Virus record (IMG/VR): IMGVR_UViG_3300012663_000645
Span: 1 to 29,444 of that record
Length of the DNA stretch: 29,444 nucleotides
Reading direction: 5' to 3' (one strand)
Source: a virus
Lineage: Duplodnaviria; Caudoviricetes
How positions within the stretch are numbered: the first letter of the stretch is position 1; every line of letters begins with the position of its first letter. This document shows positions 5,829-21,710 of the stretch, one piece after another. The translations under genes and the position numbers were made by a program. Under the pieces are notes generated by a model. It saw nothing but the letters and a program-made list of their open reading frames with translations, was not told the origin of the DNA and searched no databases.

Positions 5829-6152
5829 CTAAACAGTAAAGCTACTACCACACCCGCAGGTGTGTTTAGCATTCGGATTTGTTATAACGAATTCTTTTCT
5901 CATTAATTCATTTTTATAATCAATACTAGCGCCTTGTAAGTATTGCATACTCACAGAATCAACTAATACTTTAAATTCACCTAGTGACACTTCAAAATCA
6001 TCTTCGTTTTTAACTTCATCTAATGTAAAACCATAATTAAAACCAGAACATCCACCACCTTGAACATAAGTTCTGAGTGACATGTTAGGATTATTTTCTT
6101 CCGCTAATATGTCTAAAATTTTAGACTTTGCAGCACTTGTTATTGTAATCAT
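5829..6152 (-). CDS. erpA: A-type Fe-S cluster carrier (HesB/IscA family, ErpA-like)
   Basis: GGGCSGFNYGF, VDSVSMQYLQGASIDY, NPNAKHTCGCGSSF; all three Cys intact. The family call is firm; erpA versus iscA is less certain. Confidence 0.88.
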   Translation of the reverse strand: MITITSAAKSKILDILAEENNPNMSLRTYVQGGGCSGFNYGFTLDEVKNEDDFEVSLGEFKVLVDSVSMQYLQGASIDYKNELMRKEFVITNPNAKHTCGCGSSFTV

Positions 6153-6504
6153 TTATAGCGGCCTTTATAGCATCTTCTGCAAGTATTGAACAGTGTATCT
6201 TAACTGGTGGTAGTGCTAGTTCTTCGGCAATTTGTGAGTTTTTGAGTTTAGCAGCATCATTAATATGCATACCCTTAACCCACTCTGTAACCAAGCTCGA
6301 ACTGGCGATTGCTGAACCGCATCCATATGTCTTGAAACAAGCATCTCTAATAACACCATCTTGACCTACCTTTATTTGTAGTCTCATAACATCACCACAA
6401 GCTGGTGCACCAACCATACCTGTACCAACAGTATCATCTATATCAAACTTACCTACATTTCGTGGGTTTTCATAATGGTCAATTACTTTATCCGAATATG
6501 CCAT
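6121..6504 (-). CDS. iscU: Fe-S cluster scaffold IscU
   Basis: MAYSDKVIDHYENPRNVG, GAPACGDVMRLQI, FKTYGCGSAIASSS, LPPVKIHCSILAEDA (HscA-binding LPPVK). Confidence 0.98.
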   Translation of the reverse strand: MAYSDKVIDHYENPRNVGKFDIDDTVGTGMVGAPACGDVMRLQIKVGQDGVIRDACFKTYGCGSAIASSSLVTEWVKGMHINDAAKLKNSQIAEELALPPVKIHCSILAEDAIKAAINDYNNKCCKV

Positions 6505-7240: not shown

Positions 7241-7435
7241 TTAGGCCATCTTTGGTGGATTACGTTTGAACATTGATTTGATTACGACTTTGCGTTTCTT
7301 ACCAGTGTCTACTCCGGGTTCACCAGCTTGGCCACCAGTACCAGAAATCTTACCATCACCTACATTGTTTGTGGCGACACCGACTGCACCAGCGCCCATG
7401 CCATCTTCTTTTACAAACTCTTTAAACGATTTCAT
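7241..7435 (-). CDS. Small Gly/Lys-rich probable internal head protein
   Basis: Start at ATG 7435 (TGATG overlap) gives MKSFKEFVKE, resembling the T4 internal-protein capsid-targeting sequence. Confidence 0.7.
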   Translation of the reverse strand: MKSFKEFVKEDGMGAGAVGVATNNVGDGKISGTGGQAGEPGVDTGKKRKVVIKSMFKRNPPKMA

Positions 7436-10342: not shown

Positions 10343-10965
10343 TTTTTTTCGTCTTCTTCTGGTTCTTCTTTTTGTTTTGAACCACCGTAACGAGTACCTT
10401 GTTTCTTGCCTGCGCCACCATTAGGTTGTGGTCCTCTCTTGGTGAAACTCTTCCAATCAAAAGCATTTGGTTTCTTTTCTTCTTCTGCTTTCAATTCGAC
10501 CTTAGCACTTGTGTGTTCATTCTCATGTTCACCAGCAACTTTTTGTGGACCAGCCAAGGTGTCGATTGTCTTTTTCTTTGCGTTGAGTTTTTCATCCAAC
10601 ACTCTACGGAAACCTCTTAAAGTAAGTTCTTTTTCTTCTTTTTGAGTACCGTCAGATTTTTTGTGTGACTGATAACCTTTATTCTTCATTGACCAAGCCA
10701 ATGCAAAAGGATTATCAATGTCTTTGTGTTTCTTCATTGCTTTCACAGTACCTTCAAAACCAGGAGGTGCAACTTCATCAACAGTTTCTTCGTTTTTCTG
10801 ACCACGGAGAATTTTGAAATCTTGACTATCAATCTTGTTGTTCTTGTTCTTGTCAAGTTTGTGTTGATTGCCTTTTAAGGCTTCATCTAATTCTTTTTCA
10901 CTCGTTTCAACAACACCTTTAACGGCTGTGGCAATAGAATCATATTTTAATTTATTTGTGAACAT
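10336..10965 (-). CDS. Lys/Glu-rich modular probable internal virion protein
   Basis: AGGAG RBS; EF-hand-like DKNKNNKIDSQDF; APPGFEGTVKAMKK...NPFALAWSMK module; LDE/VDE sites; ends at a slippery sequence. Confidence 0.8.
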   Translation of the reverse strand: MFTNKLKYDSIATAVKGVVETSEKELDEALKGNQHKLDKNKNNKIDSQDFKILRGQKNEETVDEVAPPGFEGTVKAMKKHKDIDNPFALAWSMKNKGYQSHKKSDGTQKEEKELTLRGFRRVLDEKLNAKKKTIDTLAGPQKVAGEHENEHTSAKVELKAEEEKKPNAFDWKSFTKRGPQPNGGAGKKQGTRYGGSKQKEEPEEDEKKK

Positions 10966-11437
10966 TTTTGTCTCCTGATTTAACCTTTTTTATTTTTGCA
11001 CCCGTGCGGTCTTGGTCTCTGTAAGTCTGCATTGGTTCTTTATTGGTTGCGCCGCCAGCAGTACCATAAACACCCATATCGTTTGCACCTGGATCGTCTA
11101 TCGCTTCTCTGAATTTGGTGAATGATTTGCCGGTACGCTCTGTGGTCCCCATTTGATATTTATCTACCTTTGGTTCCATACTTTCCCTATATGTGATATC
11201 ACCCAAACCAGATGCTGTGCCTACCGGTCTTGTGTTCCACTCTTGACCCACACCTGGACTATTAATTTTGGTGGAGTTTGGTGTATCACTAAATCTTTTC
11301 TTCTTTGCAGTTTCTTTATCTTTATTGAAATTTGACATTCTAGGCATAGGTTTGGTAACTAATGACGGTTGTTCGTCTAGTTCCATTTTATTCTTAACCT
11401 TTATCAGATTTTCAATATAATTGACTGATTGTAACAT
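10952..11437 (-). CDS. Hydrophilic hypothetical protein, possibly the detached C-terminus of the 18655-20529 gene
   Basis: GGAG RBS 5 nt before the ATG; low complexity; internal KSFTKFREA motif. Confidence 0.7.
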   Translation of the reverse strand: MLQSVNYIENLIKVKNKMELDEQPSLVTKPMPRMSNFNKDKETAKKKRFSDTPNSTKINSPGVGQEWNTRPVGTASGLGDITYRESMEPKVDKYQMGTTERTGKSFTKFREAIDDPGANDMGVYGTAGGATNKEPMQTYRDQDRTGAKIKKVKSGDKNVHK

Positions 11438-11448
11438 TTAAACTCCGA

Positions 11449-14400
11449 TTAAAACAGTTCACTATCTAACTCATCTTGCAGAGGATCCAGATTTGTTAGT
11501 GAACCATTTAATAACATTTCATCTTCCATGAGAATTCTCTGTCTAATTCTATTTATGGCAATACTATTGGCATCCATTTCGGACATTGCGTTCATACTTC
11601 TAATGAACTCAACCTGTGTATTGCCTTTTACATTTACTGCACCAGTACTATTATTGCTTGTTGTTCTTGGATCCAGACCAAAAGTCTTCAATATGAAGCG
11701 TGATGGTGTGCTTGATACCTCGATAACAGATTTTACTGGTTCTTTCTTCGCAAAGTTTAGATACTTGGCTGCAGCGCCTGTACCTGTGATTGTTCCAATA
11801 GTACCAGAAGATTCAATATCCCATACGAATGGTTTAGGTTTCTTGTTCCAGAATGAGAACGCACGTGGATTGTTGTAACCGCCGCCACCAAGGTTTGCAT
11901 CTATGAAACGTTGTAAGTCGCCTTGTGGACTTAGGAACTCGGCCTCTGTTGAAGAACCGGTTGTAACCAAAGTACCAAAACTGTTTTCAAAGTACTTTTC
12001 TGTCTTGAAGAACAGTATTAGTGAACCAGTACTTTCAAAATTACGTATTGTTGTGTATGGTGTATCTTGTGAACTGATGACTTCGGTGGTTGTGGAGTTT
12101 ACACCCCATACTTTGTCAACACGACCAGCTGCGCCAGTTACATATACGAGACCACTACTCTGTTCACCCTTAGCAATGTTGTATACAGCATTTGTACCTA
12201 CAATCAGGAAAGTACCAGAAGATTCCACTCGCTTTGCAAAAACAGCAACTGAACTACCAGATAAGTAAATCTGACCAGCATTTCCTTCTACCGGAATCAC
12301 TAAACCAGCAGAACCAGTAATAGTCAAATAACCACGTGACTTATTACCAATAATTGTTATATCGGTGTTACCAGTTGTTACCAGTGTAACATCACTTGCT
12401 GGACGTAATACGAAATTGTATTCCGATACGGTATTCAAATAAATTGTACTATCCGAACTGGCACCGTAAATTGATCCAGAAAGTCGTGCATCTGGACCAT
12501 AGAACGTTATGGTGCCAGTAGATTCCGCAGTTAATGTTTGTTCAAATTGCGATTGTGTGGTTAACTTTAAATTACCAACAGAAATTTGATCCAGTGCAGG
12601 TTTGGTTACAACAGTTTGAACTCTATTGTAACCAAATCCGCCTGCGATTGAAAGTTGTGCAAGTGAAGAACCAGCAATTGCACTAGATGAACCAATTGAA
12701 TTTTCACCGTAAGGGAACAGTTTCAGACTACCACTAGATGTTTCATGTAGTGTTAGATTATTGAAAATTGTATTAACTTGGCTGTAACGGTTATTTGAAC
12801 CCGCAGCAATTGGTACACCAGCTAATGTCTCAGTAGAAATGCCGCCGGTTTTGGCCAGACCAACACGCTCAGGGAAACTAACTGTTAAGTAACCACGTGA
12901 TGGATGTGTATATGATAGTAATTGTAATCCAGGTACAAGTACAACACCACCAGTTGATTCTTCGTTGTAAGCTTTCTGTACAAATGTATCAACAGATATA
13001 CTCAACGAACCGGAAGATGTGAATATATTATCTTTATACTCTACTTCATTCAATCTGTATGAAACAGTTGTTACGGAACGAGTTGTTATATCACCAACAA
13101 TTGGTGTTGATGCGATTGGAGAACCTGCAATTGCAGAATCTAGGAACCTCAATTCACCATATGGTACCAACGACAAATTGGCAATATCTGAATTTTGTAT
13201 TACTGCTTTGTTTGTTACAGAATCGGTTGTTAATAACAAATCGACAGAACTTGAATTCTGTGTCTTAAATTCGGTTGCAGTGGTGCTGGTCAAATTCAAT
13301 TGACCAGTTGAAATTGCACCAAGTTCTAATAATGGTAAGTCAACACCATTCAACCACAAGTAACCAACAGAATCAATATTCTGTAATGTTCTGATTGTTG
13401 AACGTTGTGTAAGTTCTGCTTCACCCGAAATAGGTGTGGATGCTAACGGAGCACCAGAAATACCATTAATTGAATTTGGTTTTTCTGTGATGTAATAGGT
13501 GTATAGACTTCCTGTTGATAGGAAATCAAGCGTCTTATTAAATTCAGAGACTGTCGTTAGTACAGTTTCACCAGATGTTGCTCTATTGTATGTGTCACTG
13601 TATAGACTTACAGAACTCAACAACAATGTGCCGGTTGAAATAATATTCAATCGGTCACGGTAGGCATCGGTATTAATTAATGTAGTATAACCAATACTGT
13701 TTTCGGTTCTAATACTATTTGTTACTAAACTAGATGTTAGTTTTAATTGACCAGATGTGTTTTCATTTCTTAGTCCATTTGTTACTAATGATGAATTTAA
13801 TAATATTTGGCCTGAACTTGACACCAAATATTTTTGAGCAGAAGAACTCGATTCACTGGATATCAGTAATGAACCAGAAGAATTAATTATGCGTACATCA
13901 ACATAATTCGTTTGACCGTTACCCAAGAAGACTTCAATTCCGGAACCACCGGAAACAGGCAATGAAGAAATTGCAGAACCAGCTAATCCAGATGCGTTAC
14001 CAAAATAGTTATCACCTTTTGTGGCAAATTTTAATGTGCTAGTGGATTGTTCATTGCGTATGGAATTCGTTACATACGATTTTGTTAATGTTAATTCACC
14101 ACTAGACAGCGCCGTTTGATTGAATTTCTGTGTTGTGGAACCATTATGTACTAATTGACCAACAGAAGTAATTTGAACAATTTCACGATAAGAATCTGTA
14201 TTGACTAACGTGAAACTTCCTGAACTTATTTCAGTACGAATACTTCTTGTTACTAAACTAGATGTTAGTTGTAGTTGAACAGAAGAATCACCATTTCTTA
14301 AACTATCAGTCAATAGTTCAGAACTCAATACCAAGTCACCAGAACTTAATATGAGGTTCAATGAACCTTGGCCTGTTGCACCAGCAACAAGGTTTAATGT

Positions 14401-16134
14401 TCCAGTAGAAACAACGGTACGAGTTTGATTGGTTCGTGTCTGACCATCATTGATGTATTCTATTACACCACTATTACCACCCAATGGCAAACCTGCAATT
14501 GCAGAACCAGCAATTGAACCAACGTCAGTTAAATGACTTACACCATAATTTGTTGTGACCAGTTGTACATCGGACAAATGGTTGATTGTCTTTTCCCATG
14601 CAACAACAGATGTTAGTTCCAATAAATCTGAACTGAGTTGATTTATTGTTTTACGGAATACTGAAACGTTTGTTGTTACTAATTGTCCAGAAGACAATAC
14701 GAGTAATATTTGTGTTGGTAATTGGAATGAACCAACTATGTTTAAAACACCAGATGATGTAATGTTACGTATAGAAGCAAACTTCGAAACTGCACTATCA
14801 TATTCACCAGAAAGGGTCAACGAAGCAAGAGGTGCGCCGGCAAGAACACCGGATTCTGTAATAGAATTTTGACCAACGTTAGTTACAACCAAATCACCAG
14901 TGGATGTTGGATGTATCTTGCGTTCATAAACCCAATTAGTTGACAACAATAATTGGTCGTCAGAATTTACATTGAGTTTTGTTTCTGTATTCGAAACAGT
15001 TGATAAAAGTAAATTACCAGAAGATTCTTCAACGTAGTTTACCGCAGTTCCAAGAGCAACAAATGTGATATTGCCAGAAGACTGGAATTGTCTTACACTT
15101 GCATATTCAGATGGACGATATTGAGTGTCTTGTGATGAAATTGCCTGTGAAGCAAGTGCATCACCAGACAGTGTGCCGGATTCTGTTATTCTACGTACAA
15201 ATTCACCAACTGGTTGTATTACCAGATTACCAGTACTCGCAACACTACCCAGGAACGTTACGGTTGTTACAAGTTGACTTAAATCTAGTGGAGAACCAGC
15301 AACAGGAACAGTCGCCAGTGGAGTGGTGAATAGACCACTTCCTGGTGTACCACCTTGTCGTTTATTGACAAAAGGTAGTACCGTAGCAGAATATATGGAC
15401 GGTTTGAATTCGGTTGTGTAAACTGTGGTTAGTTCCATTGAACCAACAGCGGTTCTGTTCCAAATTCGTGTTCTTACTGATTCACCAGTTGTTACTAATT
15501 GTACTGTACTGCTATTATTTGACAGTATTCTATAAGCAACATTTGTTGAAATTACAAGGTCAACAGAACTATCTTCTAAACGTAGTGAACTATTGAGTGT
15601 TGTCGGAACAAATTTTAATTCGCCGTTACTATCTTCTAAACGTAACGATTGTTGTACAACTGTGCCGGTTAGATTTAATGCACCAGTAAGGGATGTAACT
15701 CCATAAGAAATAATGCCTACACTATTTCCTGTGAAACTCAATGTACCAGTACTGGTTATTACACCCTTAGGTGCATTGATTTTCTGTATTATTGTTTGTA
15801 CGTATGTGGTGACAGTACCTGATTGCGGTAATTCTGCAAGTGCAGAACCAGCAATACCACTACCTGCATCAACCTTGTATGTGGTTAATTTTATTGTACC
15901 TGATGAAGAACTTTCATATGTTCTGGCTACAGGTATAAAAGTTCCGGTTAGTGGTACTTGGCCAATAGCCGATACTGAGATACCACCAACAGTAGAAACT
16001 CTAAATGATATTAGTTTTATTGTACCTGATGAGGAACGTTCATATGTTCGGGCTACAGGCGTAAACGAGCCGGCGAGTGGTACTTCACCAATCGCTGATA
16101 CTGAGATACCACTGATTAAGTTTGCGGTAGCCAA
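11449..16134 (-). CDS. 1561-aa Ser/Thr/Gly-rich repetitive structural protein (candidate fibre scaffold/ruler)
   Basis: 4.7 kb uninterrupted ORF; TTG start 9 nt after GGAG; about 50 copies of a ~20-aa S[ST]GxLxL unit and 12 copies of a GxxLAxxPIxG-like motif; charged C-terminus RIRQRILMEDEMLL. Confidence 0.8.
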   Translation of the reverse strand: MATANLISGISVSAIGEVPLAGSFTPVARTYERSSSGTIKLISFRVSTVGGISVSAIGQVPLTGTFIPVARTYESSSSGTIKLTTYKVDAGSGIAGSALAELPQSGTVTTYVQTIIQKINAPKGVITSTGTLSFTGNSVGIISYGVTSLTGALNLTGTVVQQSLRLEDSNGELKFVPTTLNSSLRLEDSSVDLVISTNVAYRILSNNSSTVQLVTTGESVRTRIWNRTAVGSMELTTVYTTEFKPSIYSATVLPFVNKRQGGTPGSGLFTTPLATVPVAGSPLDLSQLVTTVTFLGSVASTGNLVIQPVGEFVRRITESGTLSGDALASQAISSQDTQYRPSEYASVRQFQSSGNITFVALGTAVNYVEESSGNLLLSTVSNTETKLNVNSDDQLLLSTNWVYERKIHPTSTGDLVVTNVGQNSITESGVLAGAPLASLTLSGEYDSAVSKFASIRNITSSGVLNIVGSFQLPTQILLVLSSGQLVTTNVSVFRKTINQLSSDLLELTSVVAWEKTINHLSDVQLVTTNYGVSHLTDVGSIAGSAIAGLPLGGNSGVIEYINDGQTRTNQTRTVVSTGTLNLVAGATGQGSLNLILSSGDLVLSSELLTDSLRNGDSSVQLQLTSSLVTRSIRTEISSGSFTLVNTDSYREIVQITSVGQLVHNGSTTQKFNQTALSSGELTLTKSYVTNSIRNEQSTSTLKFATKGDNYFGNASGLAGSAISSLPVSGGSGIEVFLGNGQTNYVDVRIINSSGSLLISSESSSSAQKYLVSSSGQILLNSSLVTNGLRNENTSGQLKLTSSLVTNSIRTENSIGYTTLINTDAYRDRLNIISTGTLLLSSVSLYSDTYNRATSGETVLTTVSEFNKTLDFLSTGSLYTYYITEKPNSINGISGAPLASTPISGEAELTQRSTIRTLQNIDSVGYLWLNGVDLPLLELGAISTGQLNLTSTTATEFKTQNSSSVDLLLTTDSVTNKAVIQNSDIANLSLVPYGELRFLDSAIAGSPIASTPIVGDITTRSVTTVSYRLNEVEYKDNIFTSSGSLSISVDTFVQKAYNEESTGGVVLVPGLQLLSYTHPSRGYLTVSFPERVGLAKTGGISTETLAGVPIAAGSNNRYSQVNTIFNNLTLHETSSGSLKLFPYGENSIGSSSAIAGSSLAQLSIAGGFGYNRVQTVVTKPALDQISVGNLKLTTQSQFEQTLTAESTGTITFYGPDARLSGSIYGASSDSTIYLNTVSEYNFVLRPASDVTLVTTGNTDITIIGNKSRGYLTITGSAGLVIPVEGNAGQIYLSGSSVAVFAKRVESSGTFLIVGTNAVYNIAKGEQSSGLVYVTGAAGRVDKVWGVNSTTTEVISSQDTPYTTIRNFESTGSLILFFKTEKYFENSFGTLVTTGSSTEAEFLSPQGDLQRFIDANLGGGGYNNPRAFSFWNKKPKPFVWDIESSGTIGTITGTGAAAKYLNFAKKEPVKSVIEVSSTPSRFILKTFGLDPRTTSNNSTGAVNVKGNTQVEFIRSMNAMSEMDANSIAINRIRQRILMEDEMLLNGSLTNLDPLQDELDSELF
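11550..11556 (-). promoter_or_regulatory. Possible late promoter ATAAATA
   Basis: Inside the end of the 1561-aa gene, about 110 nt upstream of 11437; it would restart transcription after the weakly expressed large gene. Confidence 0.45.
15888..16112. repeat. Recent intragenic tandem duplication, 126-nt (42-aa) period
   Basis: ttttattgtacctgatga..aac.ttcatatgttc.ggctacagg and gatactgagataccac each recur 126 nt apart (15895/16021; 15971/16097). Confidence 0.9.
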
Positions 16135-16158
16135 CGAACTGTTCTCCGGCTTTTACAT

Positions 16159-16196
16159 AAAAAAAAGGACACGGCTCAAAGAGCCAGTGTCCTTTT
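16159..16196 (-). terminator. Strong Rho-independent terminator
   Basis: Minus strand AAAA-GGACAC-T-GGCTC-TTT-GAGCC-GTGTCC-TTTTTTTT: 11-bp stem with one bulge and a U8 tail. Confidence 0.92.
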
Positions 16197-16223
16197 GGTG
16201 CTCCTTAAACCCTACGTACAGGG

Positions 16224-16230
16224 TATTTAG
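16224..16230 (-). promoter_or_regulatory. Possible late promoter variant CTAAATA
   Basis: Same heptamer as at 16899 and 19344; intergenic, but upstream of the terminator. Confidence 0.45.
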
Positions 16231-16236
16231 AAGTGA

Positions 16237-16878
16237 TTAATATGCTGCTGTTTCAAACCATTCGATACCAATAATGATGTTACCAACACCAGTAGCACCC
16301 ATAAGAATTTGATTGGTGATTACGAGTCCTTCGTTGTTTGCCAGAACGATTGGATAGTCGTTAGCATCGTAAGAAATCAAATCAGTTTGAGTTAATGAAG
16401 TACCAACGCCAGGAACCCAGAAATATGTCGTACCAAGTGGGTTTGCATCAAGTGTTCTAGTACCAGCAGTAATTGCAGCAGTACCTGAAACACGCACATC
16501 AGTCATTGCTGAACCAGCAAGTGAAGTACGATACTTATTGTTGTTACCGGTTAAAACAACTGCGGTTTGGCCGGAATCTGAACCGCTAAATGAACGGGCA
16601 GCATAAACACCAAGACCCATTTGTTGTGCAGCACCGAAAGCGGTAGTACACACAAAACCAACAGAGATACGTTTCACCACGCATACTGCACCAGTACCTG
16701 GAGCCCATCTAAATGAAAAGACAGGAGCACCAGCTGCAAGAGTGGTTACAGCACCAGTTGGAACAGATAATTGAAATGCACCAGTTAGTTCGTCTGGTTT
16801 AATAACCACACGAGCCGCCTTCATTGTTGGGTCAACTGTTAGAAGTGTAGAATCTACACCAGATTGAATTAATGCCAT
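16237..16878 (-). CDS. Beta-rich structural protein, paralog B (probably high copy)
   Basis: Collinear with 16902-17561 (PVFSFRWAPGTG, FVCTT, TAGTRTLD, YPI.L.NNEG, EWFET); own promoter, AAGGA RBS and downstream terminator. Confidence 0.8.
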   Translation of the reverse strand: MALIQSGVDSTLLTVDPTMKAARVVIKPDELTGAFQLSVPTGAVTTLAAGAPVFSFRWAPGTGAVCVVKRISVGFVCTTAFGAAQQMGLGVYAARSFSGSDSGQTAVVLTGNNNKYRTSLAGSAMTDVRVSGTAAITAGTRTLDANPLGTTYFWVPGVGTSLTQTDLISYDANDYPIVLANNEGLVITNQILMGATGVGNIIIGIEWFETAAY

Positions 16879-16898
16879 TTTGTTTTTCCTTAAATTAT

Positions 16899-16905
16899 TA
16901 TTTAG
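16899..16905 (-). promoter_or_regulatory. Late promoter variant CTAAATA
   Basis: Overlaps the upstream TAA, 21 nt before the 16878 start. Confidence 0.6.
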
Positions 16906-17561
16906 TTTTCTTTAAAACCGTCAGTTTCAAACCACTCAACTTTTACAGTAAGTGTACCGACACCAGCAGCACCCATAGCAACTGCATTTGTTACGACAAA
17001 CCCCTCGTTATTTTGCAAAATAATAGGATAATCATCCAAACTATATGATAACAAATTTGTATTTGTTAACAATGTACCAGCTGTGGTTGTTGGTGCATAA
17101 AAATAGGTTGAACCCATTGCATTTACATCAAGTGTTCTGGTACCAGCAGTCAATGCAGCTGCAGCAGAAATACGCACATCTGTAACTGCGGAATTATACA
17201 AAGATGTTCGGTTTTTATTGTTTTGAGTATAACCAACTGCAATACCGGTGCCGACAGTATCACTTGCTAAAAAGTTTCTTGCCAAAACTAAGTTATAACC
17301 CATTGATTGACCAGCAGTAAAACCTGTTGTGCAAACAAAGTTAACAGCAATACGTCTGATAGCACACAAGTGGCCAGTACCAGGGGCCCAACGGAATGAA
17401 AATACTGGAGCGTTAGCAGCAATACCCGTTAATGCACCTGATGCAGCAGTAATGTTAAAACTACCCAATATTTCATCCGGTTTAATTACTGTTCTAACTG
17501 TTTTTAGTGTTGTATCAACAGTTGCCAACGCAGATGTGTATGGACTTTGTATTTGTGCCAT
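16902..17561 (-). CDS. Beta-rich structural protein, paralog A
   Basis: Full-length paralog of 16237-16878; A/T/G/V-rich. Confidence 0.8.
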   Translation of the reverse strand: MAQIQSPYTSALATVDTTLKTVRTVIKPDEILGSFNITAASGALTGIAANAPVFSFRWAPGTGHLCAIRRIAVNFVCTTGFTAGQSMGYNLVLARNFLASDTVGTGIAVGYTQNNKNRTSLYNSAVTDVRISAAAALTAGTRTLDVNAMGSTYFYAPTTTAGTLLTNTNLLSYSLDDYPIILQNNEGFVVTNAVAMGAAGVGTLTVKVEWFETDGFKEN

Positions 17562-17562
17562 G

Positions 17563-18177
17563 TTATAGAGCTCCCGATCCTATGATATAATTGAAATTGC
17601 GTTTACCTTGCATAGGACCCGGTTGAGGTATAACATGCACTGTAATCACACCGTCAGTTGTACAACGTGCGGATGCAGTAAAGTTATCCATTTCCAATTC
17701 ATCACCACCAAATGCGGATGTTGCGTTTGCGCTAGGTACAACAACAATTCTACTTGTTGTGACAGCAGCAGCATCAGAAATAGTGAAGGTGTTTGAATAC
17801 TGCGGAATTGTGTTACCGAAATCTATGATAGCTGTTCTAACAACGTTCAACGCACCAGTGTTATCTTCATAGACAAGATTTGTTGCTGTCGGTGTAATAA
17901 AGATTTCTTTATCACCCGATGCAAAGTCTACCAAGTTATCACTATTGCTACTCTTTTGCACACTACGTGCAACGGTACCAGTACCACTATTGTATGTACC
18001 AATACCAGTTTCCCAACTACCATCAGTTAGGTGAACTAAAGCGTAATGAAATTTGTCGCCAGTCGCAGCTACCGCAGAAAAGCTTTGAAAACCAGTAACG
18101 CTGGAACCAAGCGTAATTGTGCCGGTGCCAGACGAGGTGGTCTTTTGTTTTACTCTGTCAGCTACTACATAAGCCAT
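17563..18177 (-). CDS. Two-domain fibre/adaptor-like structural protein
   Basis: N-terminal ADRVK.....GTGTITL.....GFQSF...WETGIGTY...SSNS...VDF..G.KEIF domain, recalled from fibre proteins of aquatic phages; second domain IDFG...DELEMD. Confidence 0.7.
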   Translation of the reverse strand: MAYVVADRVKQKTTSSGTGTITLGSSVTGFQSFSAVAATGDKFHYALVHLTDGSWETGIGTYNSGTGTVARSVQKSSNSDNLVDFASGDKEIFITPTATNLVYEDNTGALNVVRTAIIDFGNTIPQYSNTFTISDAAAVTTSRIVVVPSANATSAFGGDELEMDNFTASARCTTDGVITVHVIPQPGPMQGKRNFNYIIGSGAL

Positions 18178-18188
18178 GTTTTATCCTA

Positions 18189-18626
18189 TTACTCAGTTGA
18201 GTTGTTTAGACCAATTGTCAATGTGGTGATACGAATTTCGTCACCGTTGTTGGCAATGATAATCGGTGCGTTAGTGAATCGGTCAGCAAACATCAACTTA
18301 CCGGCATTAGGGCCAGAACGTGCGGTTGCATAATAACCATACACATAACCTGCGTTAGATGTTGGTGCACCAGTAAACAAGAAACTGATGGTGTTACCAT
18401 AAGTTGCTGTCGTTGGGTTTGTACCAGTGATGTTCCAGTTTACAGCAGTCAAGTTGTTGGCAGTATAACCACCACCAGTGACTTCATTGTAATCCACTTC
18501 GGTATTGGCAGCACCTGGTGTCAGGTTATTACCATATAATCGAATGTCGAGGTCTTCACCGGTTTGTTTTCTTAACGAATTGTTAAGAAAGATTGCTTCA
18601 GCTTGGTTAGCTACTACTAAGGCCAT
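18189..18626 (-). CDS. Small beta-rich structural/fibre subunit
   Basis: IRLY....P....YNEVTGGGY....W....ATY....F....VYGYY....LMFADRF....NGDEIRIT pattern; own promoter and AAAGGAGA RBS. Confidence 0.75.
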   Translation of the reverse strand: MALVVANQAEAIFLNNSLRKQTGEDLDIRLYGNNLTPGAANTEVDYNEVTGGGYTANNLTAVNWNITGTNPTTATYGNTISFLFTGAPTSNAGYVYGYYATARSGPNAGKLMFADRFTNAPIIIANNGDEIRITTLTIGLNNSTE

Positions 18627-18651: not shown

Positions 18652-18658
18652 TATTTAT
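18652..18658 (-). promoter_or_regulatory. Late promoter variant ATAAATA
   Basis: Overlaps the upstream TAA, 26 nt before the 18626 start. Confidence 0.7.
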
Positions 18659-20529
18659 GAATCCTTGGTTAATGTGTCGTCAGTTTCTTCTGTTATCTTG
18701 GTAATTAAACCATCAGAATTTCGGTCAACCGTTTTTACCACCTTTTTTTGTTCCGATAGTGATACGTTGACTACTGGAGCCGGAACATTAATAATAGGTG
18801 CGGGTATATTTATTTCTTTTGAATAAATCTTATCCAATTTGTCGGAAGTCTCTTGCATTACAGTTTTTAAACTTTCTTGTACTGCATTATTTGTTTCCGC
18901 TATCACGTTATCAACTGTTTCAAATTTCTTGTTGATAATTTCATTTTGTAATTTGATTGTGTTTGACAACTCACCAACCATCTCATTCATTTTCAATTCC
19001 AACATAAAGTTGGATTCACGAATGTTTATTTCGTCTTTTTCTTTGGTGCTCTTGGCAACTTCGGTGTTGACTTCGCTGGTGTAGACTTCTTCACTGGTGG
19101 TTTCTTCGGTGTAGGTTGCTCCTGAACCACCGGTGTAACCACCTCGTTTTTTGTTTCCGTCCCACTTGATGTTATCGGCATTTGATTCACCTGCTCGATT
19201 GTCTGCTGAGATTTTACCTCCGGCATTGGGGTCGAACTTGAAGAAGTGCTTGTAATCTCGTTTGAGGTTGATTTTTGGAACAAACCCAGTATTTTTCTTA
19301 ACATTTTCATCTTCCTTAAAAAGAAATTTTACAGAATCATTTATATTTAGCTTACCATGGTTTTCTAACCATGCACATGAAGTTTCATTGAGATTTTTAG
19401 TATCAATGAATTTATTCAATGTATTGTACGTATCTGTGATGTTTTGTTCCACCAACTCTAACGAAACACTATTATCAAAGTTGATAAATTTGTTAAAATT
19501 CTGGACGTAAGCTTCTTTGTTGGTCTGTGCCAATTGCCACTTCTCTTTTCTCACCGATTCGGAAACCATCTTTGTCAACTTTTCATTTCGTTCTTTACTG
19601 GTTTCGTTTGATGTTTCAACGAATACCATAACGGTTTCATAACCAAGTTCTTCTAATTCTTCTTTAATTGTGATGATTCTTGTATGGTCATCAGCAGGTC
19701 CATTAATAATCAATGGACCACGATTACGAATTGCTTCTCTACGCAAATCATTTGACTTCTCAGATAATTTTTGCTTATCCATTAGGTAGTCGAATGCTTG
19801 CACAGAATTGATTTCTACTGCCTTGTTTTCCGCAATTGCTTCACGGATAACGATATCTTTACCAGAACCAGGTCCACCAGTGATGAAAATGGCTTTGAAT
19901 AAACCACGGTCAATGTTTTCATTCAGTCCCATACCCTTACGTGTATCACGCATCAATTCTCTTGCGTGGTGGTCAGGAACGTGTTCCGGAACACCTTGTC
20001 TGAAAGAATGAAAGTCATTATTGGAAGCATGTTCACGCATTTTGGTACCGGACATACCTTCTGCACCTTCGGCATCAGGGTCACGGTGACCAGCAGAAAC
20101 TACCGAAATCTTTTTAAAGTTGTACAATGCACCTTTGTGTGTACCATTATATTGGTGCAATTTGTCATGCATTTCTTTTACACGGTCAGAACCAGCCACA
20201 TAAATCAAGTGGTCGTGGCCAGCAGCATTTAATTTTGCAGCATGGTGTAAGAAAGTTGGATGTTCTTTTGAAGATGTTTCAAAATGTGTACCAGGTGAAT
20301 AACGTTGTAGGTGTTTAACCTTCTGTTCACCAGTTAAAGGATTCTTTTTAGAATCTTGTGAGTGTGAAGCAATAACTGTATGTGCAGCACGATGTTTGGC
20401 TGCCAGCTCTCTTACTTTGTCGATAAGTTTCAGGTGGCCGCTGGTCGGTGGATTCATACGTCCAAAGGCCATCACCACAGGCTTGTGTGTCTTATCTTGT
20501 TCTTCTACTAATTGGAGAAATGATTTCAT
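18655..20529 (-). CDS. Multidomain protein: cytidyltransferase-like (HIGH superfamily) domain, degenerate P-loop domain, and coiled-coil/Pro-rich tail
   Basis: MKSFLQLVEE leader; FGRMNPPTSGH, KKNPL, VAGSDRV, RDPDAEGAEGMSGTKMR; FITGGPGSGKD; C-terminal INVPAPVVNV...KTVDRNSDGLITKI. Confidence 0.85.
   Translation of the reverse strand: MKSFLQLVEEQDKTHKPVVMAFGRMNPPTSGHLKLIDKVRELAAKHRAAHTVIASHSQDSKKNPLTGEQKVKHLQRYSPGTHFETSSKEHPTFLHHAAKLNAAGHDHLIYVAGSDRVKEMHDKLHQYNGTHKGALYNFKKISVVSAGHRDPDAEGAEGMSGTKMREHASNNDFHSFRQGVPEHVPDHHARELMRDTRKGMGLNENIDRGLFKAIFITGGPGSGKDIVIREAIAENKAVEINSVQAFDYLMDKQKLSEKSNDLRREAIRNRGPLIINGPADDHTRIITIKEELEELGYETVMVFVETSNETSKERNEKLTKMVSESVRKEKWQLAQTNKEAYVQNFNKFINFDNSVSLELVEQNITDTYNTLNKFIDTKNLNETSCAWLENHGKLNINDSVKFLFKEDENVKKNTGFVPKINLKRDYKHFFKFDPNAGGKISADNRAGESNADNIKWDGNKKRGGYTGGSGATYTEETTSEEVYTSEVNTEVAKSTKEKDEINIRESNFMLELKMNEMVGELSNTIKLQNEIINKKFETVDNVIAETNNAVQESLKTVMQETSDKLDKIYSKEINIPAPIINVPAPVVNVSLSEQKKVVKTVDRNSDGLITKITEETDDTLTKDS
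19026..19304 (-). CDS. Nested out-of-frame gene: 92-aa protein with an amphipathic N-terminus and a Pro/Lys-rich tail
   Basis: AAGGAAG RBS 6 nt before ATG 19304; CTAAATATAAAT promoter-like element 35 nt upstream; MLRKILGLFQK...PKKPPVKKSTPAKSTPKLPRAPKKKTK. Confidence 0.65.
   Translation of the reverse strand: MLRKILGLFQKSTSNEITSTSSSSTPMPEVKSQQTIEQVNQMPITSSGTETKNEVVTPVVQEQPTPKKPPVKKSTPAKSTPKLPRAPKKKTK
19339..19350 (-). promoter_or_regulatory. Intragenic late promoter (overlapping CTAAATA and TATAAAT)
   Basis: Minus strand CTAAATATAAAT just upstream of the nested ORF's RBS. Confidence 0.6.
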
Positions 20530-21710
20530 TTTCTTACTTTTAACAAATTAGCTTTTGCGAATTCTTTACGGTTGACCAACTTAGTTGGTTCACCACCGTG
20601 ATTTACAACGAAACCTTCCGGACCAGTTGCCTTGTTATCAATATGATGTTCTAAACCGCCTGTGTGTTGTTCCAATGTGTTCACTAATACATCTTTCGCT
20701 TTTTGAAGATGATTGTGCATCTTCAACAAATTATTATAATGTTCTTTATGTTTCTCAATATGGTCAGTATGTGGTTTCAATTCCTGCATTTTTCTGGATT
20801 GTCCAGCAGGAGTCTTTAATTTTGCAGAAGCCTTTTCATACTTACCCGCAATATGTTTACTCAAACCAGCAGCAGTAGGTTCTTCATCTGTTCTGACCGT
20901 ATGGTTTATATATGTCTCTAAGTGGCCGCCTTCTCCTTGGTGTGCCTCAGTGTGTTTGTACATTCCATTCTTCTTACCTTCATCATGGAGTTTCTTTGCT
21001 GCGTCCATGTGTTCTTGGAATTTGTTCTGGTCGTCCTCAGAATAGTGTACTTGTTTGGTGTCCATGTTTGGAGATTTCTGCCAAACATCAGGATGTTGTT
21101 TGAAATTGTGTAGGTCAGGATGCGGATCCGCACTCATTGACGATATTGAATCTCCGTGGTATTGTGTATGTGTAACAACACCCATTTGCGAGTTCTTGGC
21201 CTTTGTTGCTTCATCACCTTTGGCAGTATAGGTGATAGTGTTAGGTGTAAAAGAAACTTTTCCACCCTTCTTCTGTTTCAAATCATCTTTGGTGAACATT
21301 AAGTCACCTTGATATACACCAGTCGATGGTGCAACTTTTTTCAGATGATTCAGAGAAGCGTGTAGTTTATCCATTAGACCAGGAGCATGTCCGTGGTTCT
21401 TTTGAATATCATCGTGTGTATAATTTAGTTTAGGATTCTTGTTGAATGCTGACTTTGAAGCAACAAAGAACTTACCATTTTCTGGATTGTGACCATATAC
21501 GATAGCGGGCGAACCATCATATTTCATTGTCATATGGGAACTAGAACCACCAGATTTGATGTGTTCATGTGAGTATTTCAAGGCTTGATACGCCTTATCA
21601 AAACCCTTTGGACCTTCCTGTAAAGGACGATCCTCAGCATGTGTGATATGCTTTAGCTTCGCACCTTCTTCTTCGGCCTGTTCTTTTAGAAATGCTAGGA
21701 AAAGTCCCAT
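20526..21710 (-). CDS. DUF6267-like protein with ATP-dependent RNA ligase/capping-enzyme motifs
   Basis: H.ED, MKYDGSPA (motif I KxDG), FFVASKS, VYQGDL (III), PEGFVV (IV), TKLVNR.EF (V); AGAGGT RBS. Confidence 0.78.
   Translation of the reverse strand: MGLFLAFLKEQAEEEGAKLKHITHAEDRPLQEGPKGFDKAYQALKYSHEHIKSGGSSSHMTMKYDGSPAIVYGHNPENGKFFVASKSAFNKNPKLNYTHDDIQKNHGHAPGLMDKLHASLNHLKKVAPSTGVYQGDLMFTKDDLKQKKGGKVSFTPNTITYTAKGDEATKAKNSQMGVVTHTQYHGDSISSMSADPHPDLHNFKQHPDVWQKSPNMDTKQVHYSEDDQNKFQEHMDAAKKLHDEGKKNGMYKHTEAHQGEGGHLETYINHTVRTDEEPTAAGLSKHIAGKYEKASAKLKTPAGQSRKMQELKPHTDHIEKHKEHYNNLLKMHNHLQKAKDVLVNTLEQHTGGLEHHIDNKATGPEGFVVNHGGEPTKLVNRKEFAKANLLKVRK

Follow-up and report, generated by a model that had tools for sequence, protein, structure and literature searches.

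The Locus and Its Features

The window, by which we mean the whole stretch of viral DNA that was analyzed (29,444 nucleotides), is a fragment of a T4-like phage. Its own contig is a 29-kb fragment, and the gp55 homologue was read from complete relatives; gp23, the prohead protease, and gp55 are found in 5/5 complete relative genomes. On the minus strand, a long gene (the host gene) encodes an enzyme fusion, and a second ORF of 92 codons, which begins with an ATG at 19304 and ends with a TAA at 19028-19026, is nested within it in the +1 frame. An earlier note on this DNA had named a promoter core, a ribosome-binding site (RBS), the ATG, the 92 codons, and the shifted frame, and all of these were found in place. 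The features are as follows.

18655..20529, minus strand: host ORF, 624 aa (Pfam, PHROGs, model, and alignment)
19344..19350, minus strand: putative T4-type late promoter core, CTAAATA, in the host codons for Leu-Asn-Ile (from the sequence)
19311..19317, minus strand: RBS, AAGGAAG, in the host codons for Lys-Glu-Asp (from codon choice across loci)
19026..19304, minus strand: nested 92-aa gene, +1 relative to the host ORF 20529-18655 (translation and homologue alignment)
10952..11386, minus strand: C-terminal part of the host protein of relatives, displaced in the window and now a separate ORF (24.1 bits with the host-tail profile)

The host protein consists of a cytidylyltransferase-like domain (residues 21-165), a P-loop kinase (about 212-390), a linker (396-525), and a C-terminus which, in the alignment, is missing from most relatives. 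Its two folded domains find their best fold match in NadR, which joins an NMN adenylyltransferase to a kinase (E 1.5e-7, with a low TM-score), and on this modeled resemblance a role in NAD salvage is possible for the phage protein (19350-20529, minus strand). The linker is modeled at pLDDT under 50 and is predicted to be disordered; the nested gene corresponds to host residues 409-501 inside it. The consensus of the T4 capsid-targeting sequence is of the form M-K-S-F-x-x-x-V-x-E, and the N-terminus of the host ORF (starting at 20529) resembles it, with LVEE at residue 9. So do the N-termini of the window ORFs starting at 21710, 7944, and near 7432, which suggests a cluster of putatively head-packaged proteins. 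L/I-x-E motifs are found in the host protein at residues 9, 204, 382, and 505, among 13 in total. In T4, L/I-x-E is the motif of the prohead protease gp21, and proteins are packaged by a 10-residue N-terminal signal (PMC9026906); cytidyltransferases and kinases have been reported from proteome analyses of cyanophage virions (PMC10665884). In one relative, L097, the host frame is shifted inside the kinase with the nested ORF intact; this is possibly an assembly error, because L097 is nearly identical to L098.

The nested product has three parts: an amphipathic, cationic N-terminus (residues 1-11), a linker of Ser, Thr, Pro, Glu, and Gln, and a tail rich in Lys and Pro. The hydrophobic moment of residues 1-11 is 0.70 (clade mean 0.64, versus 0.21 elsewhere), and the clade means of the net charge along the chain are +2.6, then -1.8, then +9.2. 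The predicted structure is coil apart from a helix at residues 2-6 (pTM 0.15). The product has no transmembrane segment, signal peptide, or Cys/lipobox, and the Cys content across 57 nested products is 0.0%. The earlier note had likened the tail to histone H1. Its composition agrees, and [ST]P[KR][KR] motifs occur at 0.46 per sequence, but no linker-histone or H1-like profile in Pfam was matched at E 0.1, so that the likeness is one of composition only.

No Pfam family was matched by the nested protein; in PHROGs there was a single weak match (E 0.028), and in the Atlas it met clusters of viral hypothetical proteins at 0.89, under the 0.9 mark. Single-sequence searches returned 0/10 candidates and no record from a cultured phage. 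As the earlier note expected, gene callers drop this gene: among 5790 candidates there were 8 called proteins, most of them on short contigs. Because it is kept in essentially every member examined and almost never called, it is a near-core gene missing from annotations, in a large lineage of uncultured T4-like phages.

Conservation of the Nested Gene

The loci examined number 160 and came from two scans with host-frame queries; 12 of them were too short. In one host-frame scan, 80 of 553 matched relatives were kept. The judged set contains 92 loci, namely 89 distinct full loci and three without the anchor motif. In every one of the 92, the nested ATG is followed by an open frame with a Lys-rich tail (86 scored by regular expression, the three anchor-less loci, and L138, L150, and L171 read by eye). 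A canonical RBS (AGGA, GGAG, or GAGG) is present in 90/92; that of L191 precedes its first ATG, L146 has AGGGA, and L189 has none. Of the features that the earlier note proposed to look for in homologues, the RBS, the ATG, and the open frame are thus conserved; these loci are related rather than independent draws. When loci from nested-frame queries were added, the ORF was present in 101/101 (92 by regular expression, nine by eye). In the window, the gap between AAGGAAG and the ATG at 19304 is 6 nt. Another in-frame ATG, at 19310, adjoins the RBS, and the homologues keep the one at 19304. A chimera produced by a frameshift was ruled out, because the ATG and its spacing from the RBS (8 nt in 88/92 loci) are conserved.

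The median identity to the window is 66% in the kinase, 37% in the host frame of the overlap, and 36% in the nested product, and the identity of the host linker among relatives drops to 20-50%. In other words, the nested design survives a heavy turnover of both sequences.

Selection and the Role of Chance

Because an open +1 frame comes more easily over a linker with few Leu, Ile, Val, and Met residues, a resampling null was applied. When the host codons of the window were resampled synonymously, the nested frame stayed open in 1.4% of 2000 draws, and across 52 loci the mean chance was 0.13. In 19 diverged loci, 37.6 stops were expected in the +1 frame and none was seen. Codon choices that would make a stop number 0/313 in the overlap (a zero partly by construction), versus 1011/2576 upstream and 356/680 downstream. 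Given the host residues, the chance of an ATG is about 0.72 per locus and is weak evidence alone. The host codon that holds the ATG is NAT in 100/100 loci (background 76%) and encodes a variable host residue: N in 84, H in 9, Y in 6, and D in 1. The host codons under the RBS are AAG-GAA in 92 and GAG-GAA in 4 of 100 related loci, whereas at other Lys-Glu pairs of the host gene, Lys is AAG in only 51/673 cases.

In 31 disjoint pairs, the pNN/pNS of the nested frame was 0.53 (0.42-0.65) versus 0.80 (0.72-0.88) upstream; downstream, the control gave 0.75 (0.60-0.96), an interval that overlaps the nested one. For the host frame in the overlap, the same number of disjoint pairs gave 0.30, and the two values together indicate that both frames are under purifying selection. 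The suppressed synonymous variation that the earlier note proposed as a check was seen clearly against the upstream region (host-synonymous divergence 0.17 versus 0.36) and slightly against the downstream region, whose value of only 0.20 weakens this test. Between the window and its relative L001, third positions differ in 5/92 codons of the overlap versus 38/200 upstream.

The host codons of the overlap also shift toward C-ending forms, as the earlier note saw. In the window, the C-ending fraction of fourfold codons is 0.385 versus 0.11 upstream and 0.14 downstream, and that of twofold pyrimidine codons is 0.67 versus 0.45 and 0.38, respectively. Because the third position of the host codon is the second position of the nested codon, this shift follows from the Thr, Ser, Pro, and Ala of the nested product taken together, and not from Pro alone as had been supposed. 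The RNA folding of the overlap is not unusual (z = -1.0).

The start, the RBS, and the frame are held beyond the level that the host residues impose, and the nested frame is under purifying selection, as a conserved and selected gene would require. From these comparisons, the nested ORF is very likely a conserved, selected gene with its own RBS, and that it is a real gene at all we regard as nearly certain. The RNA run X1, which shares 7% of words, gave contigs of relatives without start or strand information.

A Probable Late Promoter Inside the Host Gene

T4 late promoters carry TATAAATA at -13 to -6, and those of the phage Aeh1 carry CTAAATA beginning at -12 (PMC1524935); from the latter position, the transcription start is predicted at about 19338. 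TAAATA occurs 33-57 nt upstream in 30/57 non-redundant loci, where 0.018 is expected per interval searched; it is missing from the other 27, and two loci keep the motif in another register. Host codons for Leu-Asn followed by a codon starting with A spell TAAATA 28/31 times at this site versus 7/25 elsewhere. Its presence is scattered on the kinase tree (nine changes). CTAAATA is not over-represented in the window (three seen, 4.9 expected). TAAATA is strand-biased there (13 minus, two plus), and 6/12 of the other minus-strand copies sit 16-48 nt upstream of an ORF start. A scan for sigma-70 promoters and terminators gave matches at chance level.

The late promoter claimed by the earlier note is thus present and enriched at its site but far from universal, and it is likely to be real in the window yet dispensable; its activity in the window is probable. 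The gp55 sigma factor would start a late mRNA near 19338, and in loci without TAAATA the nested gene would ride on the host mRNA.

A Second Clade and Free-Standing Look-Alikes

A similar nested +1 ORF is present in 38/39 distinct loci of a second NTase-kinase clade (36 complete, two cut by the contig end; absent in L376), in which the kinase identity is 39-45% (five tested). There it lies 336-517 residues after the P-loop, behind other domains, versus 191 in the first clade, and TAAATA is absent from 25/25 non-redundant loci.

In large T4-like phages, free-standing late genes (L227 and L384-L436) are like the nested gene in their three-part design, length, RBS, and TAAATA promoter, which lies 22-45 nt upstream in 41/42 distinct genes. 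Their -1 frame is closed by 4-23 stops (33 genes). They differ from the nested gene in being rich in Ala rather than Ser/Thr, and in a promoter-ATG distance of mostly 22-29 nt rather than 33-45 nt. For the members tested, Pfam, PHROGs, and the Atlas gave no named family. It should be mentioned that these genes were found by N-terminal patterns, and their N-terminal likeness is therefore by construction. The cross-profile medians were 5.5-20.7 bits for real sequences versus 2.9-16.6 when the first 11 residues were kept and the rest was shuffled. As the first 11 residues and the overall composition account for most of this similarity, the nested and free-standing forms are no more than candidate homologues.

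A free-standing profile, which recovered 4/5 positive controls, found nothing in six genomes of the first clade and only the nested ORF in 2/4 genomes of the second. With the first-clade nested profile, the free-standing gene was the only hit in a 352-kb genome, and four further genomes gave none. Two complete genomes with the free-standing gene lack the host gene. This pattern fits a possible substitution of the two forms for each other. Three of the 42 look-alikes carry an HeH/Rho_N-like terminal module (to E 9e-7 in PHROGs, below the cut-off in Pfam). Extra small modules, placed between the helix and the basic tail or following them, were noted in L390 and L413 (EF-hand-like) and in L406, L421, and L423 (HeH/Rho_N-like). 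In L298, a shorter kinase-like gene is followed after 1 nt by a free-standing ORF of 52 aa, whose start is amphipathic and whose tail is rich in Lys.

Which Frame Came First?

The earlier note called the nested gene overprinted, which would make its frame the younger of the two. Comparison among relatives leans instead toward the opposite order, which may be the true one. Among distant kinases, 64/80 stop 198-205 residues after the P-loop, a few residues past the Trp that precedes the promoter. Capture by read-through is favored because these kinases end where the promoter begins, and also because the stretch that follows reads like an intergenic region: promoter, RBS, ATG. The longer gene would have extended past its old stop codon and engulfed a small late gene. 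We slightly favor such an engulfment of an older late gene over de novo overprinting. The linker and the nested ORF co-occur in the first clade. The codon usage of the nested and host frames gives an RSCU correlation of 0.33 versus 0.12 and a log-likelihood of -0.147 versus -0.121, values that set no age order between them.

The strongest alternative is that a real gene was overprinted de novo within an existing disordered host linker and converged on the architecture of the free-standing genes. Purifying selection on the host frame and conserved motifs in the overlap are consistent with it, as are the fairly frequent opening of the +1 frame by the composition of the linker, the mainly N-terminal similarity in the cross-profiles, and the failure to find a free-standing intermediate beside an NTase-kinase; no genome was found in which the kinase ends in a stop and a free-standing copy follows. 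However, the same design of helix, linker, and basic tail would have had to arise twice, at two positions in two clades, and to match a free-standing family with the same type of promoter. The ends of the distant kinases also argue against it, and the host motif K-E-x-x-N-V is what the -1 reading of RBS, spacer, and ATG gives in some free-standing genes. We regard this alternative as possible but somewhat improbable. The broadest form of the capture idea is doubtful. In it, an unrecognized, widespread family of late membrane-to-DNA tethers of T4-like phages would have been taken up, together with promoter and RBS, on two or more occasions by cleavable linkers of head-packaged polyproteins. If capture is true, overlapping genes can be made by read-through of an older gene and remain invisible to annotation. 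The free-standing, nested, uncoupled, and lost states offer natural controls for the origin and dissolution of an overlap and for the order of its frames.

A Possible Function

The whole account, a late gene nested in the +1 frame whose product is a membrane-DNA tether and which was engulfed by a longer gene, has in our estimate a probability of about 0.5. The tether itself is proposed tentatively, from the three-part design. The 92-aa product would be a disordered tether with residues 1-11 on the anionic (inner) membrane; its neutral-to-acidic spacer would separate this helix from the tail, and the +9 tail would hold DNA without sequence specificity, close to where heads are assembled at the membrane. 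In T4, head assembly takes place on the inner membrane (PMC9026906). The host would be a head-packaged polyprotein whose loosely constrained linker is probably excised by the prohead protease, which may be why it tolerates a passenger gene. If the tether reading is true, the product is a candidate for holding DNA at the membrane in late infection.

Late timing and the +9 tail are also compatible with a histone-like protein that condenses DNA inside the virion, the helix binding the prohead core or the host polyprotein and not the membrane, and the short N-terminal packaging signal of T4 (PMC9026906) offers a precedent. The nested N-terminus, however, has no L/I-x-E near residue 10, where the host protein has one, which makes this reading unlikely. 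Its cationic amphipathic pattern resembles that of membrane-targeting helices, which we take to be a further argument against a virion-internal role.

The cationic N-terminus and the late promoter would also suit an accessory protein that acts on the membrane, in exclusion, the timing of lysis, or envelope stress, and whose tail binds anionic lipid or cell-wall polymers and not DNA; a cluster of Lys is able to bind lipid as well as DNA, as in TubY (PMC7762940). Against this stand the lack of a transmembrane segment, signal peptide, and Cys/lipobox and the HeH/Rho_N-like tails of a few look-alikes, which point to nucleic acid; we consider it quite unlikely. A spanin or holin was rejected, given no Cys and no transmembrane segment.

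Comparison with Known Systems

Nested +1 genes are known in phages, and the gene nested in the NTase-kinase matches no family tested. In T4, gene 30.3' in gene 30.3 (NC_000866, NP_049817.1) encodes 75 aa on the same strand, in the +1 frame, wholly nested and translated internally. Its host gene is unrelated to the NTase-kinase, its product by inspection lacks the design of amphipathic helix, linker, and Lys tail, and the annotation of the T4 stretch consulted shows no late promoter inside it. The o-spanin Rz1 of lambda is a Pro-rich, small late gene nested in the +1 frame of Rz with its own RBS. The present product differs from it in lacking a lipoprotein signal and Cys, and its host is an enzyme fusion. 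An Rz1-type o-spanin was thus rejected, the host being an NTase-kinase and not an i-spanin.

Short cationic helices such as the membrane-targeting helix of MinD, and the p16.7 protein of phi29, are analogues for attachment to membrane and DNA. A short cationic helix with a high hydrophobic moment, which characterizes the MinD type, is what the nested N-terminus has. The C-terminal tail of TubY combines a membrane-binding amphipathic helix with basic, non-specific DNA binding (PMC7762940). The analogy is functional. TubY is a folded tetramer in which a single C-terminal tail has both activities, and no sequence relationship of the nested product to TubY, MinD, or p16.7 was found.

For the hepatitis B virus, it has been hypothesized that the polymerase spacer was born over the older pre-S region and joined the flanking domains (PMC8227390), which is the same history as that proposed for the host linker. 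Hepatitis B virus is an animal virus with unrelated proteins, and the unit engulfed in the phages would, in contrast, include a promoter and an RBS, at two positions in two clades. In the part of the literature covered by the searches, no paper on the nested gene was found.

The Displaced C-Terminal Module and Released Overlaps

In the window, the C-terminal part of the relatives' host protein has become a separate ORF (11386-10952) about 7.6 kb downstream of the host gene, and its start matches the relatives' host frame in the last third of the overlap. The displaced fragment contains two +1 stops, which 0/88 relatives have, and its C-ending codons have fallen to 3/15 versus 14/16 at the nested locus (1150/1518 in the relatives). 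At the nested locus itself, the host frame has lost the match to the relatives' host-tail profile (1.5 bits), and the C bias is retained. In the last 28 codons, the window and L001 show nine host differences versus five nested ones. The last 27 nested residues of the window score -5 bits with the relatives' tail profile and are unrecognized, so that the nested tail keeps its composition but not demonstrably its sequence. In the second clade, L376 (host, about 2620-2800) has no nested ATG and has +1 stops, and it represents either a loss of the nested gene or an un-nested state. In both cases, where the overlap is undone, +1 stops appear.

It is very improbable that there is no second protein and that the open frame is a by-product of linker composition, RNA structure, or a frameshift signal: the host linker is indeed poor in codons that make +1 stops, but stop-making choices abound on both sides of the overlap, the RBS and ATG are kept although they fall on synonymous and variable sites, the RNA folding is ordinary, and stops return once the two frames come apart.

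When metagenomes were scanned for close relatives carrying the C-terminus that the host protein has in the window, 15 ordinary relatives were all that came back. This coiled-coil C-terminus (18655-19025, minus strand) is common to L001, P0003, and P0004; at the DNA level, the arrangement was read from the window and L001. The junction lies near the end of the nested gene, and the approximately 7.6 kb that part the host gene from the C-terminal module of its relatives (11449-18626, minus strand) include a repeat-rich ORF of 1561 aa. Elsewhere in the window (5829-6504, minus strand), two adjoining ORFs resemble, by eye, IscA- and IscU-type iron-sulfur cluster genes.
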